A stretch of 64,000 nucleotides of DNA, from contig OZ024740.1 in the NCBI GenBank assembly GCA_964016885.1, positions 375,968,001 through 376,032,000 of the forward strand, written 5' to 3'. The number at the start of each line of letters is the position of its first letter. Positions within the stretch are counted from its first letter, which is position 1. The notes beneath the pieces were generated by a model. It was not told where the DNA came from. It made no database searches and saw only the letters and a list, made by a program, of their open reading frames with translations. Shown piece after piece: positions 201 to 59,446 of this stretch. The position numbers were made by a program, and so were the translations under genes. The stretch is from Eledone cirrhosa. Its lineage: Eukaryota.

Positions 201-1596
201 AGGTAACATGATATGAGGCCTAAAAGCACTTGTCAACAGGAAAGTGCAAAACCTACATATGACAGAAAATATAATAGCAAGAATAGATAGAAAAATATAA
301 AAAAAGAAAAGAAGAGGAAGGAAAAAAAGGAAAAAGAAAGTGGGGAGAGGAAAAAAGAAAAAAGAAAAAAGAAAAAAGAAAAAAGAAAGAAGAGAGAGAG
401 AAAGAGAGAGAGAGAGACTTTTGATCAGGAACGCTGTCAAAATGAAAAGAGTAAATTGATGAGGTGTATGGGCGAATATTATAGATGGTATTCAATTATT
501 AGAGGTCTAAAATGTAGGAACTGGATATATTATTTTTTATTTGATTTTAATACTAAAATTTGGAATAAGAAGTGTAAAAATGTATTAATAAAATAAAATT
601 AAATTAAATTAAAATAAGTATATAAAAGATTTTTATATAAAATAAATTAAAATAAAATAAAATAAAAAAATTAAAATAGTTTATCTATGTCAAAATTAAA
701 AATTTCTATTAAGCGCTAACTCTTATATCGGATACTATTGATGGTCTCTATTTCTATTATAAAATGGATTACTACAGCATCACAAATTCACTTAAAGACA
801 TTCCTTTACCGGGAAAAACTGAATACACAAGACGTTTGATAGAAAAAACGGACTCTTTCGTTCGGAGGCTCAGATGGATCGCACATTTCCATGACCAGCG
901 ATTAAAAGGAAATTTCTATAGAAAGGAACCTAATAACCTTGATTCATTATTTAACTCCAGAAGAAATCCTCCCTTTAATAAAAACTTACCACATTTTGAA
1001 AATGAATTAACTAAAATTATACGAAGAATTAAATTCAAAAGAAACCCATATCGAGGCTAGGTACACCTTATCATCCTTAAGAATAAAATTAATGACCTTA
1101 ATTCTTCTAAAAACGTTTTAGTTCATTCTGACAAAAGAAACAATTTATATGGCATAAGGAAAGTTAAATATAATAACCTTATCCTTAAAGAAATAAGAAA
1201 CAATTATCATAAAATTACGCACGATAATCTTGATTCTATTAATAGAGAAGCACATGAGATAATAACCAAACAGGGTATGAGAAAAAAACAGAACCCTCCG
1301 TCCCTAGAATCCCAAGGATTAATCTGAAGGATCATAAAAGACATTTTCGAACTGACTTGCCTGTAAGACTAATTGCCCCTTCTAAATCTGACCTAGGGGT
1401 TGTTAGTAAATCCAACTTGGATATAATTATCCCACTGTTTAGGTTTAAATCTCAACTAAATTTATGGTTGGGTTCATCCGATGTAATAGCCTGTTTAAAT
1501 GACCTAATTAATAAAGACAAACTAAAATGTATTCAATTAGACATTACTAGATATTACTCTTCTATTTCACCTTCACTCCTAAATAAGGCTCACTCA

Positions 1597-2787
1597 TCTA
1601 TATATATAAAACTGTGGTTGTCTGTCTGTCTATCGATTTTTGGCACACATCTCCTCTTAGAATCTCTCACGGAATTGCACCGAAATTGCTATACTTGTAC
1701 ATTGAGCCCTAGCGAAGACATCGGAAAAAAAATATTTCAAATTGACCCGCCCTATCTGACGAAATCGAATATAATGTATCGATTTTTGAGCGTAAGTGAT
1801 CAGTTATTTCCCTTTGTTCTGTTTACATTGAGCGTCTGCGTGCAAAAATTAAAAAAATTACGCTGGCTTTCTCAGCGTTTAAAATGACATTAACACAATA
1901 ATTTTGACTTGAAAGCAAGTCTATTTAAAGACTACGTAAAACAAGCAAATATTTCGTAAAAAAAAGCAAAAATTATATAAGTTTATTTAAAATATATGTA
2001 TCTGTAAATTTCGTTACGCGTGCAGTCAGTTTTATATATATAGATGATAAACAATAATATCCTCTATGAGGTCACTAAACCTGCTAGAAACAGCAGCTAA
2101 CTCTCCCTCATATCACACCACTCCCTACTGTCTTAAATTTAGAAAACATATCCTCTATGAGGTCACTAAACCTGCTAGAAACAGCAGCTAACTCTCCCCC
2201 ATATCACACCCCTCTCTACTGTCTTAAATTTAGAAAACATATCTTCTATGAGGTCACTAAACCTGCTAGAAATAGCAGCTAACTCTCCCTCATATCACAC
2301 CACTCCCTACTGTCTTAAATTTAGAAAACACATATCCTCTATGAGGTCACTAAACCTGCTAGAAACAGCAGCTAACTCTCCCTCATATCACACCACTCCC
2401 TACTGTCTTAAATTTAGAAAACACATATCCTCTATGAGGTCACTAAACCTGCTAGAAACAACAGCTAACTCTCCATCATATCACAACCCTCCCTACTGTC
2501 TTAAATTTAGAAAACACACAGACAACCATGCAGAACAACTCCATCGCAGCTCTGTTGTTCGGCTGGCATCGTCTACTCGCGTGTTGCGCAAGTACTGTGA
2601 AACAATAAATTTCAACACTTTTTTGCACAGAGATAATATCCATAGGCGAAACTACAATTGTCACTGCTGGCGCAGCTCATGCTTCCAGGTCTGCAATTCA
2701 TTCACCCAGTGCCTGGCAGACAAAAAAGTGCTGCAACCTAACTTTGGTAACTTAATGACCCCGAGCAACGCCGGGCTTTAATGCTAG
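1597..2787 (+). mobile_element. Non-autonomous Helitron inserted in the PLE RT
   Basis: 5' end TCTATATATATAAAA; 3' hairpin CCCG-agcaacgc-CGGG followed by CTAG. Inserted between A1596 and T2788 with no target duplication. Removing it restores the RT frame (NKAHS|YALKYTDITSEEINIILTARK). Confidence 0.85.
2059..2517 (+). repeat. Minisatellite, 5 x 91-93 bp, inside the Helitron
   Basis: Units beginning atcctctatgaggtcactaaacctgctagaa start at 2059, 2150, 2241, 2334 and 2427. Confidence 0.95.
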
Positions 2788-4606
2788 TATGCGTTAAAAT
2801 ACACGGACATCACTAGTGAGGAAATTAACATCATTTTGACCGCAAGGAAAACCATCTTAGGATTTAACAATGAATATTGGACAAGAGCGGATACTTCCAA
2901 CAATTTCGACATCACCATGGGTTCGTCGGATTCAGCTAAACTGACCGACTTGGTTCGAATTTCATTTTGAACTTTTTAAATTGGAAAATTCCTCAACTTC
3001 GCGGTGGAATTTATCGTGATGATGCTCTTTTTACTGTCTTTAATTGCAACAAAGTAAACTTTAATTATTAAGAAAAATATACTCGATATATTTAAGTATC
3101 TTAACTTAAAAATTGAATTCGAGAATAATGATAAATTAGCAAATTTCCTGGATATATCCCTTAATCTAGATACCGCCCTATATTAGCCATATCATAAGGA
3201 TAATGAGAACTTAAATTACGTTAACTTTAAATCTAACCACCCTTCTAATGTTAAAACTGCTATAGTCAGAAGTGTGGAAAAAAGAATTTCTAATTTATCC
3301 TCTAACAAATATATCTTCGAAGCTAACGCCAATTATTATAATAATGCGCTATCTAGGGCTGGATATCAATCCAAAATTAAGTATACTAAGGAAACTAATC
3401 TTGGCAGAGCCTATAGTAACTCTAGTAATGCAGCTAGTAACAATCATACCACTAACAAAAGGAGGAGATCTAGATATAAAAATATCCTTTGGTACAACGC
3501 TCCCTTCTCTCTTTCCGTTATTAATAATATCCGTAAATTATTTTTAGGGCTCCATATAACAGCTTCCCTCCTTCACATATATATAGCAAGGTATTCAATA
3601 AGCATACTATTAAATTCTCATACTCCACTACCTTGAACATTTCTAAAATTATCTCAAGACATAATTCGAAAATATTAAAGAATAACACATATGTCCAGCA
3701 TTGAGAGTCATAATAATAACACTATAAGGTCCGACGTCAATGTAAACTCTAGGTAAAATAACACAAATATAAATACGACGTCAAACGTAACTTTGAGGAA
3801 TACATCAAATAGTAATGTAAATCTAGAAACTTTAGCACCTCCTTTAGTTAATTCCACCACTCCAGTTCCTAATATAATTAACCCTGGGCCACTTGCCAAT
3901 AACACTGTAAATAATCTTAATCGTAAATGCAACTGCCCTATTAGAACTAATTGTCCTCTCAGTAATTTCTGTATCGATAAAAACCTAGTATATGAATGTA
4001 AAGTGGTAACTTGTACCAATACCTATACCTACATCGGTTCTACTTCTACCTCATTTAAAGCAATATTCTATAATCATTCTTCTTCATTTAAATATCCACT
4101 TAAAAGGACAAGCACCGCACTCTCGGACCTTATTTGGTCCTTAAAAGACAAAAACATTATTTACAAAATTTCTTTGCGTAATATCTACAACGCATCTCCA
4201 TACTCCAATCCTTCCACATCTAGTGTTTGTAATTTATGTCTAGTTGAACATTTTACCATTATCTCGAATTTCAACTCTATAATAAATAGAAGAACAGATT
4301 TAATTGGTCTCTGTAATCATACATCCATCAAGACCTTTCACAAAGTATATAGCTAATGTCCTATAGCTTTTTCAGGAAAAACAGTTAATTTTTTACACAT
4401 ATTTTTCTTACATATATATTCTTTTTACATATATATATATATTTTCTTTTATATATATTTTTACACATATTTCATTATATTCTACAATGTATTAATTTTG
4501 TTTTCTCAGCATACTTTACACCTGTCAAGGTGCTCAGGGTGATATATATATATATTTTATATACATATATATATCGTAGAAGCTGCAACGCCTATCATAA
4601 TAAAAG

Positions 4607-11004: not shown

Positions 11005-11121
<117 letters not shown>

Positions 11122-11382
11122 TGGGTACACAACAGTTAGTTAACCGTACCGAGAACCATTATTTCACCTTAGCGGATCCTCAGCTCGTAATGGACCGTTA
11201 TACGGAACAGGAAGGACTTTCTCTTCCGTTTAACCATGTCCATTACGAGCTGAGGATCTGCTAAGGGGAAATAATTGTTCCGGTATGGTGAACTAACTGT
11301 TCTGTAATCACTTCTACCTAACTCGTCCGATGGACAGAGTGCTCTACCACTACGGATATTACTCTCCAGTGTTCTACCACTA
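11122..11382 (+). mobile_element. Fold-back hammerhead element, family A (inverted copy + forward copy + tail) between (TA)n tracts
   Basis: 11131-11195 is the reverse complement of 11238-11301. Motif ccattacgag CTGAGGA tccgctaaggt GAAA taatgg TT ctcggtacgg on the minus arm, with a decayed copy on the plus arm. Confidence 0.8.
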
Positions 11383-19949: not shown

Positions 19950-20341
19950 ATATAATATAAAACGAAAAATCAGTGATGCATCTGAACTCAATTTATTGTG
20001 TGTTACAATTGTTTCGCCGGCAGACAGCTCGAGACACGATCATCGTATGGATCTGTCTGATTCTGGAACTGCAGGTTCGTCGGACACTTGCAATAATTCC
20101 GGATCAGATTTTATCACTGGAGTGTTAGCGTCAAAAATTTACTTCCTCCATCTAGGAAGATGATTTTTGACGCTAACACTCCAGTGATAAAATCTGATCC
20201 GGAATGATTGCAAGTGTCCGACGAACCTGCAGTTCCAGAATCAGACAGATCCATACAATGATCGTGTCTCGAGCTGTCTGCCGGCGAAACAACTGTAACA
20301 CACAATAAATTGAGACCAGATGCATCACTGATTTTTCGTTG

Positions 20342-20350
<9 letters not shown>
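19950..20350. mobile_element. Fold-back element, ~190-bp arms, hammerhead-like motif with extended stem II
   Basis: 19950-20138 pairs with 20163-20350. The plus arm reads gtgt CCGACGA acctgcag...ctgccggc GAAA caactg TA acac. It abuts (TA)n. Confidence 0.8.
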
Positions 20351-26837: not shown

Positions 26838-27045
26838 ATAGAAGGAGCTTCTACAGGACTAGTACTGTTTCATTCAGATGAAATCTTCAGGAAGCTGGGT
26901 GTCATATTAAGTTCTGAAGATTTCATCTGAATGAAACAGTACTAGTCCTGTAGAAGCTCCTTCTATAAAATAAAACAATTTTACTCTGCCATGTATTGAG
27001 TACCTTACTTACTGTGGTTATCCCCGACTCAACCCGGGACCTACG
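26838..27045 (+). mobile_element. Fold-back hammerhead element, family B
   Basis: Arms at 26838-26890 and 26914-26966. The minus arm reads agcttc CTGAAGA tttc atct gaat GAAA cag tactagtc ctg TA gaagct. The tail is the reverse complement of 44050-44125. Confidence 0.85.
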
Positions 27046-31455: not shown

Positions 31456-31515
<60 letters not shown>

Positions 31516-31587
31516 AAAATAACAGATTAAAGTTTTCAGCAAAGAATTGCTGCTTTCACCCTTAACGAGATCTTCTGAAACTAACAA

Positions 31588-31634
<47 letters not shown>

Positions 31635-31641
<7 letters not shown>

Positions 31642-31900
31642 GCTTTCACTGTATTTTAGACTAAAGAAATTTCTAGCCTGATAGTGGGGTTTATAACCCT
31701 CGGAGAAATGGAAAAGGATGAGTGTTGCTGTACAGCAACACTCATCTTTTTCCATTTCTCCGAGGGTTATAAACCCCACTATCAGGCTAGAAATTTCTTT
31801 AGTCTAAAATACGGTGAAAGCTTATAATTTCTAATTTCTAATTTCAAACTCGCGCACTGTTTCAAAAAACATACTTACATGTTTACGTTTATAATTTGCT
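31635..31900 (+). mobile_element. Loopless ~194-bp palindrome with ~70-bp tail, family D
   Basis: 31635-31828 is symmetric about GCTGT|ACAGC. A near-identical copy lies at 44306-44570. Flanked by TA runs. Confidence 0.9.
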
Positions 31901-31909
31901 TGTGTATAA

Positions 31910-32300
31910 ATATATATTAGTAAAAAGGTAAAGAAAATGCTCACAAACTTTTCCAAGTGAAAAATAGTAGTTTAATTAGGAATAAGTATGAATTAGTAAT
32001 AAATATTAGTTAGTATTCAGTTTTAGTTTTAAGTTTTTACTGGTTGCGCATTTCTTATGTTTTTCAAAAATAATTTTGAGATAGAGTGCTCGTGATTTTT
32101 GCTCTAAATTAGAGAAAAGATCACGAGCACTCTACCTCTAAATTATTTTTGAAAAGCATAAGAAATGCGTAACCGGTAAAAACTTAAACTAAAACTGAAT
32201 ACTAAGTAGTACTTAACACTAATTTATAATTATTCCTAATTAAACTATTTTTCACTGGGAAAAAAATGTCAGCATTTTCTTTTCCTTTTTACTAATATAT
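31910..32300. mobile_element. Fold-back element, ~190-bp arms, decayed U3-A8 hammerhead variant (family E-like)
   Basis: Arms pair around ctctaaattagag. The plus arm reads ttt TTGAAAA gcat aagaa atgc GtAA ccgg TA aaa. Confidence 0.75.
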
Positions 32301-43758: not shown

Positions 43759-44013
43759 AGTTATGTAATAAACAACATCAGATAATTATTTCATTTACCA
43801 GTGGTTTCCTGAAAGCAAATAAAATTTGCTTTCAGTCATCAAAATGAAAAAATCCTGCTGTATTTATTGACAGTTGTTTTAAAAAGCACTTTTTTTAAAT
43901 CCACTGTCAATACATACACCAGGATTTTTTCATTCTGATGACTGAAAGCAAATTTTGTTTCCTTTCAAGAAACCACTGGTAAATGAAATAATTATCTTAT
44001 GTTGTTTATTACA

Positions 44014-44019
<6 letters not shown>
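43759..44019. mobile_element. Fold-back hammerhead element, family F (~125-bp arms)
   Basis: Plus strand 43928-43988 reads tttcatt CTGATGA ctgaaag...ctttcaa GAAA ccactgg TA aatgaaa. The minus arm has a perfect stem II and a TTGATGA core. Confidence 0.85.
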
Positions 44020-44052: not shown

Positions 44053-44251
44053 GTTATTCCGGGTTGAATCGGAGGTAACCACAGTAAGTAAGGTACTCAA
44101 TACATAGCAGAGTATAACAGTTTTAATATAGATGAGATTCTACAGGACTAGAACTGTTTCATTCATTAGAAATCATCAGGAATCAGTGATTCCTGATTAT
44201 TTCTAATGAATGAAACAGTTCTAGTCCTGTAGAATCTCATCTATATTAAAA
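44050..44251 (-). mobile_element. Fold-back hammerhead element, family B (second copy)
   Basis: Minus strand 44136-44184 reads gattc CTGATGA tttc taat gaat GAAA cag ttctagtc ctg TA gaatc. The palindrome has a 3-nt loop. Confidence 0.85.
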
Positions 44252-44305
44252 TATATATATATATATATATATGTACGGCAACACTCACAAAGTTTATATA
44301 TATAT

Positions 44306-44570
44306 ATTATAAGCTTTCACCGTATTTTAGACTAAAGAAATTTCTGGCCTGACAGTGGGTTTATAACCCTCGGAGAAATGGAAAAGGATGAGTGTTGCTG
44401 TACAGCAACACTCATCCTTTTCCATTTCTCCGAGGGTTATAAACCCCACTGTCAGGCCAGAAATTTCTTTAGTCTAAAATACGGTGAAAATTTATAATTT
44501 CTAATTTCTAATTTCAAATTCGCGCACCGTTTCAAAAACATACTCACATGTTTACGTTTATAATTTGGTG
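44306..44570 (+). mobile_element. Family D palindrome + tail (second copy)
   Basis: Same apex and tail as 31635-31900. Confidence 0.9.
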
Positions 44571-52151: not shown

Positions 52152-52540
52152 TATTTGAAAAAAAAGGAAAAGAACTTCTCTCGTAGTTCTAAATAATTTG
52201 ATTTATTTTTATATTATAATATTATGAGTTGGTAGATCTAGCATGTTGTTTGTTAACTTCGGTCGAAGAATTTTAAAGATTCCTGGTTAACTTTCTTGAA
52301 GAACTCTCTTCTGGCATTCATCGGTGGCGATTGTCAAACCTTACCTCAGTTTGACCAGCGCCACCGATGAATGCGAGAAGGTTCTCCAAGAAAGTTAACC
52401 AGGAATCTTTAAAATTCTTCCACCAAAGTTAACAAAGAATTTACTAGATCTACCAACTCATAATAATATAATATTATAAAATTAAATACATTTTTTTAGA
52501 ACTACAAATGAAGTCATTCTTTTCCTTTTTTTTCAAATAT
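52152..52540. mobile_element. Fold-back element, ~185-bp diverged arms
   Basis: Arms pair around gtcaaac...gtttgac. The plus arm contains CCGATGA...GAAA gttaac, a weak hammerhead-like motif. Confidence 0.75.
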
Positions 52541-56349: not shown

Positions 56350-59300
56350 AAGAGGGTGTTAAAGGTTGCTTGAAGCATTGTGAAATATGTAAAATATGTA
56401 GTTTAGAAAGCCACAACAATGCATATGGGAAATCTCGAGGTAGGAAGTGAGTGAGAAATAGGAGAAAAGTGAAAAATGAGAGAAACGAAAACAAGACAAA
56501 GGTAGAAGGGTTACCGTAGTGGAGATTTAATCCCAATATTTCGGGCTCACGCCCATCAACGGGGGGAAAGTTCCAAAAGGGGGGGAACAGGCCAAGCCGG
56601 AGAAAGTTGTATTGTCGTTAAAACACAGGAATGCCGTTATGGGGAAAATTCAAACGATGGAAAGAATGCGCGTGCGCATGATAGGCTGTGGCAAAGGCTA
56701 CTGACCAATTGGGTTAAATCAATAGGGTGCGCTAGCGCGTGAAAGCCGTACAATATGTGTGTGTAAATATATATGTGTGTGTATATGTGTATGTGTGCAT
56801 GTATGTGAGTGTGTGTGTGTGAAAGATAGTGGGCTGTAGAAGCTGGAATTCAAAGGGTGTGAAAGGTGGTAGGTTGTATAAACATGTGTGCGTGTATAAA
56901 TATAGATGTGTGTGTGTGTGTGTGTATGGGTATACATATAAGTGGGTGTGTGTGAAAGATAGTAGGCCGTAGGGGCTGTTACTGGTCACTATGGTTAGAT
57001 TAGCCATGTCAGTTCATTTCTCTCAGCCCGGTTGTTAAGTGGGGGTTTGAGGTTCTTAATAACAAGTGCTTCCTTTATCCTTAAGGATCCGATGCTGCGT
57101 TCCGTCGCTAGGACTGTGACCAAGGGTCTGCCCTGTGGGTTTCCGCATTTAAGGATGTGTTTACGGAAGGAAGATGCGTTGGTGTTGACATGTTCCTTGA
57201 TACGAATATGTAGGGGTCGGATGGTGCTACCTATGTAAAACTTGTTACATTTATCGCATTGAATCTTATATACGACATAGGTGCGTAGGCAATCTGCCCC
57301 CCATATCGGGCAGTTGCTGAGGGAACACGTCCCATCTGACTCGTCGGGTTTGGTGGAGAGGCATCTTCGGAGCGAAGGTCCTGTGTGGGCCAAATGTATG
57401 TCAAGTCCCTCCCTCCGTATGGCCCTGCGGATGGCGTTCGTGGTATAATACTCAGGTGAGGGATTTTAAAGAAGCACTTGTTTTTATCTAAGTTTCTAGT
57501 GGGTGTCTGTCTATTGGGTCTGGGGTCTCTAATTCCGTTAATCAGTCGCTTGGAATATCCATTAGACTTGAGTAGATTACGGAATTGCGTGGTATGGGTG
57601 AGACCACCCATCGGGTCGCTGCATCTATTAGTGATCCGTGTAAGTTCATTTAGGACATAGCCTCTCCTAGCGTTGTTGGGGAGGGCTGAGTTGTAATGCA
57701 CAAATAAGTCCTTGCACGCTGCCTTGCGGTAGAAGGTGGTGTTTATGTCTCCTTCTTCCGAGATGTTGATACGGAAGTCGAGGAGGGCGAGTGACCCGTC
57801 TTCTTCAGGGTGTTCGATGGTGAAATCGACGTGATTGTCAGTGTCGTTAAAGATTTGGTGAATTTCATTCGCCATCTCCCGGGAAGAAGTGAGTATCAGT
57901 ATGTAATCAACGTATCTGGAGTAGAAGGCGACGGCGTTGGGTTGGCAGGTGTTGAGTGCCTTGCGTTCCAGGTGGTCCATGTACGAGATCGCAAGTATGC
58001 CGGACAGACTAGAGCCCATAGGCAGTCCAGAGATCTGTTTGTACGTGTGGCCGAGGAAATTGAAGAATACATTATCCACAACGAAGGAGAGGAGTTGGTG
58101 GATGTCCGTGTGTGTGAGTCCGAAGTAGTGTAAGTTAGATGATCGGACTCGTTCTGTTAACAGGTCGACGGCTGGGAATGCTGGTACGGAGGTATAAAGG
58201 GCGACCACATCAAGACTGAAGGCATATCCGTTGTCCTTTCTGATGTTGGGCGCCAAATGGTGTAGTCGCTCCAAGACCTCGTTTGAGCTGCAGACGTGGG
58301 CTGGTAGTGTGTGTAGAATGGGTTTCAGTAGTGTGGAGAGCAGCCACGATATTTTGTAAAGTGGGCCCTCCACGCTAGAGACAATGGGCCTGATTTTCAA
58401 ATCGGGTCCTTCTTTATGGGTTTTCACCAGGTGGTAGAAGGTGGGTAGTTTGCTGTTTCTAGTCGTTATTTTTTTTTTTACCTTCTTTGGCAGTTATCGT
58501 TGGACACAGATGTTAGTCCATATGGTGTTAATGCCTTCCTCGATTAGAGTCGAGGAGGTCCCTGTGACTTTCGAGTAGAGGCTGTCATCATTAAGATGTT
58601 GGAGAGCTAAGTTGTTGTAGGTCTTTCTCGAGATGACACAGAATTCTTTCCCCTTGTCAGAGGGAAGGTAAACAAGGTTCTTGGATCTTAGGTTGGTGAG
58701 AGTGTTAAATTGTGCATTGGTGAGGTTGCGTTTATTGTGTGTGTGTGTGTGTGTGTGTTGGGAAAGGATGTTAGAGATAGAATGTTTCAACCTGAGTAGT
58801 TTAGTGTCAAGTTCGTGGTTGGTGGGTGGGGGGTGGAGTGGGTTGTCGAGGTGGTACGTGGGGAGTGTGGGGTGGGTTGTGGGGTTGTAATCGATCTCGG
58901 TGTTGTTTTGGATGGCGGTTAGCCATTTTAGTTGATACGCTGTCCGACAGAAGTTGGTTTCAATGTCGAGTTTCAGTCTATCATCGAGACGCTGTGTAAT
59001 GATGAACTTGAGTCCGAGGCGCAGGAGTTCGAGTTCGTCGTTGGTGAGAGTACCGGTTAGGTCGGTAACGAGGTGTGACGCATTGTTGGTAGGTAGATCG
59101 CTGTTGGAGGTGTAGCGGAAGGTGTTGTATCGCTGTTGCGGGGGTGTAGCGGAGGGTGTTGTATCGCATGCTGCCAATAAAAATACACGCACCTGTTGGT
59201 TTTCACTTTAGTTTATTATAAATTTCCGGTTGGCTGGGTGGTTCGTTCGATAACCGGATGGTTGTTTATATATTGTCAAAGATTTTTCGTCATACATTCT

Positions 59301-59446
59301 GTGACCTCCTCAGTGACTAGCTTTTTATTTTGTGTTTTGACAATACATAAACAACGATTCGGTTATCGAAACAACCCAATCAAGAGGAATTGTATAATAA
59401 ACTGAAGTGAACACAAACAGGTGCGTGTGTTTTTATTGGCAGCATG
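56350..59446 (-). mobile_element. Near full-length Penelope-like retroelement with 5' inverted repeat and 3' pLTR/tail
   Basis: ORF pieces 59192-58494, 58427-57231 and 57393-56995. Inverted repeat at 59167-59280 / 59336-59446. Degenerate hammerhead at 56531-56567. Ends at (TA)n. Confidence 0.9.
56995..59192 (-). pseudogene. PLE RT-GIY-YIG polyprotein, frameshifted
   Basis: YLPSDKG, KTHK..IRPIVS, FSLDVVALYTSVP, QISGLPMGSSLS, RYVDY (YVDD mutated), FYRK, NGY, and VVYKIQCDKCNKFYIGSTIRPLHIRIKEH. Confidence 0.92.

Follow-up and report, generated by a model that had tools for sequence, protein, structure and literature searches.

The DNA analyzed here (the window) is a stretch of 64,000 nucleotides from a 3.0-Gb AT-rich animal assembly. 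It carries two palindromes, each preceded by the left flank ACAAAGTT and then a TA tract. In copy 1, two arms of 97 bp each (31635-31731 and 31732-31828) meet with zero loop and 2 mismatches. In copy 2, arms of 96 nt (44306-44401) and 97 nt (44402-44498) also meet with zero loop, with one 1-nt gap and 96.9% identity over 194 by BLAST. The copies align with each other at 90% over 337 nt, TA tracts included, and have the apex (GCTGT/ACAGC), the short-arm end and the tail in common. The long arm of copy 1 opens with the last bases of a tRNA acceptor strand, followed by a T5 run (31747-31751). Both copies belong to a 290-nt repeat that we call family D, and positions in its repeat unit are given as unit positions. 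The features of the window are as follows (PLE, Penelope-like element; RT, reverse transcriptase).

1258-4356, plus strand: fragments resembling a second, decayed Penelope-like element, judged from translation; the two frames tested gave no Pfam match.
31513-31589, minus strand: neighbor outside family D; this is the 3' part of a Penelope-like/retrozyme family with a hammerhead, lying in one TA tract with copy 1 and supplying the ACAAAG before it.
31592-31635, no strand: (TA)n target tract left of copy 1, read from the sequence.
31635-31731, minus strand: short (inverted) arm of copy 1, covering unit ~121-217; its outer end falls within the secondary priming zone (unit 215-234) and shows TA microhomology.
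31730-31733, no strand: self-complementary GTAC apex, tRNA positions 66-69, unit 119-122; likely the place where two stalled cDNAs annealed.
31732-31902, plus strand: long arm and tail of copy 1, unit 121-290, ending at the main 3' site of the family.
31788-31833, plus strand: hammerhead-shaped stretch without catalytic core, a possible relic; 8-bp stem I, GAAA at 31816, AGCT, UA at 31823-31824.
44059-44250, minus strand: neighbor outside family D; an element that bears a hammerhead and is itself inverted at the 5' end (palindrome 44122-44250).
44273-44287, plus strand: stub of family D covering unit 119-133; it has G, the common allele, at 123 and the usual 5' stall point.
44287-44294, plus strand: ACAAAGTT beside copy 2, identical to the copy 1 flank 31584-31591.
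44306-44401, minus strand: short (inverted) arm of copy 2, 96 nt; mirrored variants at 44346, 44353 and 44386, one unmirrored 1-nt gap.
44402-44570, plus strand: long arm and tail of copy 2; mirrored variants at 44417, 44451 and 44458, unmirrored changes from unit 209 outwards.
56995-59207, minus strand, with inverted repeat 59167-59446: frameshifted Penelope-like element spread over three frames; RT PF00078, E 2.9e-9; GIY-YIG PF01541, E 1.3e-4.

Both palindromes are real, and the structure given in the initial annotation holds: loopless palindromes of ~194 bp at both loci (97+97 and 96+97 bp arms), an apex and tail common to both by alignment, a shared acaaagttt-type flank with TA tract (ACAAAGTT at both loci) and an extra apex fragment near 44272, which is the stub 44273-44287. 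The 5' end of this stub is the same as that of many simple truncations, and the stub is likely a remnant of an older copy or a template jump. Palindromes are prone to assembly and library fold-back errors, but such an artefact is hardly credible here, as the two arms are not identical, flanks and arm lengths are specific to each locus, and three samples show the same joints in raw reads at a distance from restriction ends. Moreover, the apex and left-arm gap of copy 2 are matched by short-read contigs. Contigs of runs X2 (44357-44416, including the gap) and X3 (44387-44446) cross this apex without differences, with only 15 nt on the shorter side, less than the 31 nt that the bridging rule requires, and these runs may derive from the very sample that was assembled.

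Genome-wide, one palindrome arm gave 744 candidate matches, and longer elements sharing the palindrome tail, which the initial annotation had raised, are present in the form of a repeat unit with a tRNA-like segment and its multimers. The unit is 290 nt long in 64/87 full units. It occurs as truncated monomers, head-to-tail multimers and head-to-head pairs, hundreds of them dispersed and mostly in (TA)n tracts, a preference judged from printed flanks rather than from a count against a random-site control. The head-to-tail joint was also found in raw reads (3, 8 and 4 reads in three samples) and in one contig. A 28-mer near the unit 3' end has 1269 exact genome matches, of which 356 are forward and 913 reverse. 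This surplus of reverse matches is in keeping with a satellite array of the unit on contig C28 from 19,440,625 onward (L163-L165), which holds at least 103 matches in the 30 kb examined and shows higher-order repeats; it suggests some 550 units there. This array is an unlikely source of the dispersed copies, being marked by diagnostic letters of its own; its similarity to the majority sequence of the dispersed units is 95.4%, whereas those units themselves reach 97.3%.

The tRNA-like segment lies at unit ~56-126, with A and B boxes. ARAGORN called it in 6/9 loci scanned, and in a search of 4 loci at Rfam E<=5, RF00005 (tRNA) scored up to 39.2 bits against a gathering score of 29; the other matches were below threshold, the strongest being to miRNA families. 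A 55-nt leader before the tRNA can pair with the trailer (z=-2.5), and the T5 run sits 10 nt past the tRNA. Most copies lack the tRNA segment, and three (L119, L013 and L020) start just before it. Rfam at gathering scores gave 0 matches in the window because the tRNA part is absent from the window's copies; these start at the last acceptor-strand bases, so that the tRNA is invisible from the window alone. The repeats flanking the palindromes presumably resemble octopod SINEs. A search of the literature, with Repbase, Dfam, subscription journals and supplements (e.g., of PMC8557442 and PMC13282606) outside its scope, found no description of tRNA-bearing PLE passengers; any of these further sources may contain the family.

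Relatives and atypical insertions were also observed. An older sister subfamily, 76 to 85% alike to family D, shares the tRNA and trailer (L038:378-617, L104:2517-2589, L158:644-696); it is also seen as an inverted pair and probably supplies many of the RAD reads. Two insertions (L154 and L159) lie outside TA tracts and have apparent target-site duplications of ~9-15 nt.

Insertion ends were mapped in the first 100 of the 1269 28-mer matches, all on contig C1, which collapsed to 85 insertions. Inverted plus forward copies make up 48/85 (56%), and 37/85 are forward only. The 3' end lies at unit 289-9 in 77/85 insertions, a count biased by selection of the set with a motif at unit 261-288, while the outer end of the short arm lies at unit 215-234 in 35/48 inverted copies. 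Two forward-only multimers (L097 and L136) end at 215-234 as well, so this is likely a second RT start zone. As for the inner ends, 49/133 fall at unit 114-121 (mostly 116-117), 8/133 at 111-113 (Poisson p=6e-6 versus 17 ends over positions 56-110) and 9/133 at 122-127; 57/133 fall at 111-121, and a single one (1/133) at unit 55, the tRNA head. Two overlapping self-complementary words, CATG and GTAC, lie inside the main inner-end peak. We take as established the unit, its tRNA-like segment, the multimers, the TA targets, 3' ends in the zones 289-9 and 215-234, and hotspots of inner ends at 116-119 and 112.

These ends show that the apex is a hotspot, not a fixed end. The GTAC-centred apex of the window occurs at 13 loci genome-wide and a loopless CATG-centred apex at 58, and short arms across the GTAC-apex loci measure ~18-111 nt, so the family-wide constancy of apex and arm length that had been proposed does not hold. 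The apex is indeed non-random, as the initial annotation recognized, with a strong hotspot at the tRNA T arm, but junctions vary. Among the 85 sampled insertions none has the window apex, and most inverted copies have other junctions (7/48 of the 116/116 class, 0/48 of the window's class). Opposite-strand joints were also present in raw Illumina reads of three samples, with counts of 9, 6 and 2 for CATG and 1, 3 and 0 for GTAC, so that the two words rank as they do in the assembly. Restriction-ligation chimeras are unlikely behind these joints, since molecule ends of the reads accumulate only at AATT sites. Most RAD reads are only 90-95% alike and many come from the older sister subfamily, so the joints may not be those of family D proper. 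The hotspot itself likely reflects a strong stall at the T arm of the tRNA-like segment.

The initial annotation had suggested a defined end that self-primes, that is, second-strand synthesis primed by a folded-back element end, which would account for a fixed apex and for the mirroring of the arms. Loopless apices do recur (58 + 13 loci), the arms agree at subfamily markers (23/24 at 275 and 19/19 at 51), and a rare variant is common to both arms in 15/114 inverted loci. However, the inner ends cluster but vary, and in 12/48 inverted copies the short arm carries 4-205 bases lacking in the long arm and was therefore not copied from the first cDNA. This observation largely refutes hairpin priming, and both arms likely came from RNA. 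The marker agreement then means the same RNA or the same source locus, and it could also arise by conversion. The scarcity of the 116/116 class and the absence of the window's class among the 48 junctions likewise speak against self-priming, as does the textbook constraint that a loop of zero length cannot form within one strand.

Variant sharing gave a similar answer. With rare non-CpG variants at 202 loci, positions 96-127 left out, 20/187 calls were shared in 114 inverted pairs versus 7/87 in 33 direct tandem pairs (Fisher p=0.66), so direct tandem units share rare variants as often as the arms do. Random pairs share far fewer, 18 of ~6300 in an earlier set with some misaligned near-apex rows (L113, L038). 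Because palindromes and direct pairs share alike and random pairs far less, the sharing is mostly template-born and not special to palindromes. Palindrome-specific conversion, tried as an explanation, shows no excess in these counts. Taken together, hairpin priming is very unlikely. The perfect loopless center would rather fit two cDNA ends annealing via CATG or GTAC than an intramolecular hairpin.

Our preferred reading, which we hold to be probable, is that each palindrome consists of two partial copies, head to head, of a tandem repeat that occupies (TA)n tracts and contains a tRNA in its 290-nt unit, inserted by a PLE RT/endonuclease through priming on both target strands, with an apex formed by cDNAs that stalled at the T arm and were joined by a 4-nt self-complementary word. 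The template would be an RNA of the tRNA-sense strand, made either by Pol III from the A and B boxes with read-through of T5 or by multimer read-through. A dimeric PLE protein may cut both strands of AT-rich DNA, and reverse transcription may start internally at either of two sites, both steps being modeled on the biochemistry in PMC11167929. A stall at the G-C pairs of the T stem would leave cDNA ends at 116-119, and CATG or GTAC overlaps of two such cDNAs would yield loopless palindromes. Where the RT passes the T stem, it would often stop, skip or misread at tRNA position 58, likely because of m1A58. Given T-arm stalls of PLE-type copying, the break points likely record RNA folding and methylation. 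A T5 run should end Pol III transcripts, which counts against this scheme, because the copied RNA must run 150 nt further.

Both-strand PLE priming could also operate on a template RNA whose true 5' end, a cleavage or start site, lies at unit 116-119. The sharp peak of inner ends, 49/133 at 114-121 and mostly at 116-117, would suit such an end. On the other hand, 255 copies read the T loop intact, the ends spread over 111-127 with only 9/133 at 122-127, and a second peak, skips and substitutions occur at position 58-59; positions 63-66 also differ from the textbook RNase Z site after 73. We consider a true RNA 5' end improbable and keep to stalling at the T arm.

Unit 111 corresponds to tRNA position 58, and the second hotspot lies directly beside it. 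All 50 exact matches with a non-A letter at position 58 comprise 41 junctions starting at 59 and 9 substitutions (5 T, 3 G, 1 C). The junctions include 5 skips over the T loop, and two of the matches are two sides of one locus; in some junctions a C common to both arms would allow the start to be placed at 60 instead. A control one base further gave 12 junctions and 7 C>T of 19. With the T loop intact in 255 matches, ~13% of cDNAs that get as far as 59 stop or jump at this point. Among the five A>T changes, three have another variant in common and may be one lineage, which makes the substitution excess (9/264 versus a 1.0% baseline) weak. T-loop tertiary structure could also block the RT. m1A is described as arresting RT one base 3' of itself, with misincorporation (PMC4787781), and family D resembles this m1A58 signature (Hauenschild et al. 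2015) in its arrest at 59 and its skips and misreads at 58 (41 vs 12 junctions; 9 substitutions, partly non-independent). Judged from these letters, we lean towards m1A58 as the source of the stop exactly 3' of position 58. The published signature in PMC4787781 comes from a sequencing library, whereas ours is read from insertions that arose in vivo in the genome. Our literature search, with repeat databases, subscription journals and supplements outside its scope, found no report of an m1A58 footprint in genomic copies.

The two copies of the window also differ in how they mirror substitutions. The initial annotation described two substitutions mirrored in both arms; this stands for copy 2 (44346/44458 and 44353/44451, plus a third pair at 44386/44417), but the situation is not symmetric, as copy 1 carries the family's common letters and only copy 2 deviates. 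The double variant of copy 2 has 2 genome matches, both being its own arms, and so it was rejected as a subfamily allele. ADAR editing with hairpin repair was considered for its three mirrored A:T>G:C changes and set aside, the family-wide counts being 9 AT>GC, 7 GC>AT and 4 neutral. Copies 1 and 2, two of the 13 GTAC loci, are separated by 12.7 kb (about 7e-4). Each carries A at 123 in its two arms, as do 2/50 CATG loci listed, and both show the same short-arm end and ACAAAGTT flank, the first letters of which are native to copy 1's neighbor. The identical flank is a sign of a locus-level link, and together with the proximity, the A at 123 and the short-arm end it indicates that the two copies are non-independent. 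A search for a larger local duplication around them found no shared flank beyond 8 nt.

It seems rather likely that copy 2 is a local duplicate of copy 1 set into an older D stub and that its mirrored variants came from later arm-to-arm transfer. A break in the older D copy at 44273 would have been repaired from copy 1, leaving the stub behind, and the transfer would then have mirrored the three sites between unit 136 and 177 and not those from 209 outwards. Alternatively, copy 2 could be a retrocopy of a read-through transcript of copy 1. The arm-to-arm conversion that the initial annotation had offered is thus not a family-wide process (20/187 vs 7/87), but it is the likeliest explanation for copy 2, an apparent local duplicate of copy 1 with private mirrored variants. 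Elsewhere, the arms of one inverted copy (L127) share five to seven rare variants in unit 167-194, which may stem from a divergent template or from a conversion tract.

In agreement with the first reading of the sequence, no canonical hammerhead core lies inside the palindromes or the unit on either strand. Rfam gave no hammerhead match in 4 family D loci, and a pattern search for an intact-hammerhead relative returned 0 matches. With no canonical core, family D is by definition not a retrozyme (as the class is delimited in PMC7229834 and bioRxiv 10.64898/2026.07.22.740005). Unit 177-222 is hammerhead-shaped but core-less, and in the window the stretch 31788-31833 reads CTTTAG instead of CTGANGA. 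The descriptor matched 1/1500 shuffles, an optimistic figure because it was written after seeing this segment. The D end zones lie ~2-21 and 76-86 nt past the site in unit 177-222, and for neighboring hammerhead families the corresponding distances from their own cut site are mostly 11-22 and 89-93 nt, or 20-24 nt; this spacing suggests a possible hammerhead relic. The decayed hammerhead reported near 31530-31585(-) was confirmed insofar as 31513-31589(-) belongs to a hammerhead family and has a G at the cleavage position. The core of that family is CAGAAGA (non-standard, with A at position 4) in 10 instances listed, including L195 and L138, and its members end mostly 20-24 nt after the cut site. 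Near-loopless palindromes of other families also occur in the window (11120-11312, 19955-20346, 26841-26963, 31918-32294, 43760-44017, 44122-44250 and 52155-52536); these seven have the same head-to-head layout, and several bear canonical hammerhead cores.

PLE-type coding sequence is found both in the window and elsewhere in the genome. The element at 56995-59207(-) has a cysteine motif upstream of its GIY-YIG domain, and a 3'-end piece of the decayed element at 1258-4356 adjoins family D in L013. The genome holds 10,597 GIY-YIG candidates. Coding Penelope-like head-to-head palindromes are found at L201:1066-4647 (3.58 kb, 98.7%) and L210:1765-5020 (3.26 kb, 99.7%). Stop-to-stop open frames with RT and GIY-YIG motifs at L196:5122-2309 (-), L197:1988-4519 and L198:1775-5062 span 938, 844 and 1096 codons and are probably young Penelope-like copies. 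In a DNA similarity search for an autonomous partner, nothing was significant in 50 PLE loci (234,541 bases; best E=0.069) of the 10,597 candidates, and no partner for the family D 3' end was found within the window.

Family D works like a non-autonomous PLE, judged by its structure, and copying by a PLE protein is putative. Its insertions are partial tandem and 5'-truncated, with an inverted 5'-truncated copy in 48/85 and TA or AT-rich targets, and there are two alternative 3' ends (289-9 and 215-234), spaced longer than the usual 30-40 nt. PLEs are described as having 5' copies in inverted orientation, TA targets and head-to-tail multimers that are non-autonomous (PMC8557442); the same source notes that non-autonomous Chlamys elements generally share the 3' end with their partner, and that Naiad and Chlamys also have no canonical hammerhead. 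Relative to retrozymes, the tandem unit falls within 170-400 nt (290 nt), and the type I hammerhead with its CUGANGA core is absent. The fixed apex and arm length, and the short arm wholly inside the long arm, that would mark hairpin self-priming are likewise lacking. An ordinary tRNA SINE moved by a LINE, with inversions through L1-style twin priming, would account for the A/B boxes and for the copies starting just before the tRNA, and a cephalopod genome is described as rich in LINEs and SINEs (PMC13282606). However, the 3' end is without poly(A) or a short tandem tail, many multimers include sequence upstream of the tRNA, as many as 56% of the insertions (48/85) are inverted, with sequence duplicated head to head, and the two end zones match the pattern of neighboring hammerhead families. 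We regard such a SINE as highly improbable and retain both-strand PLE priming.

A broader reading, which we put forward tentatively and would not yet bet on, is that family D is a tRNA-mimic passenger of PLEs, in which a tRNA module replaced a dead hammerhead and is methylated by the host like a tRNA, so that the copies are a fossil RT map and a direct record of both-strand PLE priming in vivo. If true, a T-stem stall and the stop, skip and misread at m1A58 would be kept in hundreds of copies. If the stop at 59 is due to m1A58, a retroelement has used its own RT to write an RNA modification into germline DNA, which shows that its intermediate takes the fold of a tRNA and is treated like one. 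A PLE passenger that bears a tRNA but lacks a functional ribozyme would occupy a place intermediate between SINEs and retrozymes. How PLE tandem and inverted insertions form is stated as an open question in PMC8557442. Family D offers hundreds of products that are short, young and readable in full; they show two start zones and one sharply defined stall site, and both-strand priming is testable with a 290-nt substrate.

Among known systems, tRNA-derived SINEs (SINE2) resemble family D in having tRNA-like A and B boxes within a short non-coding retroposon. In family D, however, the tRNA is embedded in a tandem unit, between T5 and a 55-nt leader that can pair with the trailer, and is missing in most copies; neither a start at the tRNA head nor a LINE-matched A-rich or short-repeat tail is found. 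The schistosome Sm-alpha is likewise tRNA-like and carries a hammerhead. Metazoan non-LTR retrozymes (PMC7229834; bioRxiv 10.64898/2026.07.22.740005) share with family D non-coding tandem units of 170-400 nt, as monomers and multimers, and are proposed there as PLE passengers; they carry a type I hammerhead per unit, whereas family D has at most the core-less shape and ends at the tRNA T arm instead of a cut site. MRC1 of Chlamydomonas (Craig et al. 2021, PMC8557442) is similar in its head-to-tail multicopy form, 5' truncation, inverted 5' copy and microsatellite targets; compared with PLEs of this type as described there, family D carries a tRNA-like segment and shares no 3' end with an autonomous PLE in the 50 loci compared. 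Template switching or conversion between inverted-repeat arms, which makes imperfect arms more alike according to PMC8604942 and PMC3820800, fits copy 2, whereas family D as a whole has no palindrome-specific excess. The PAc Poseidon PLE (Frangieh et al. 2024, PMC11167929) is autonomous whereas family D is non-autonomous, and its sites are described as 30-40 nt of tail apart without target homology, whereas the D zones are ~60-75 nt apart with TA microhomology. In vitro, PAc behaves much as in our model: it is reported to cut and extend both strands of AT-rich DNA, starting internally at two sites and without the need for hammerhead cleavage.
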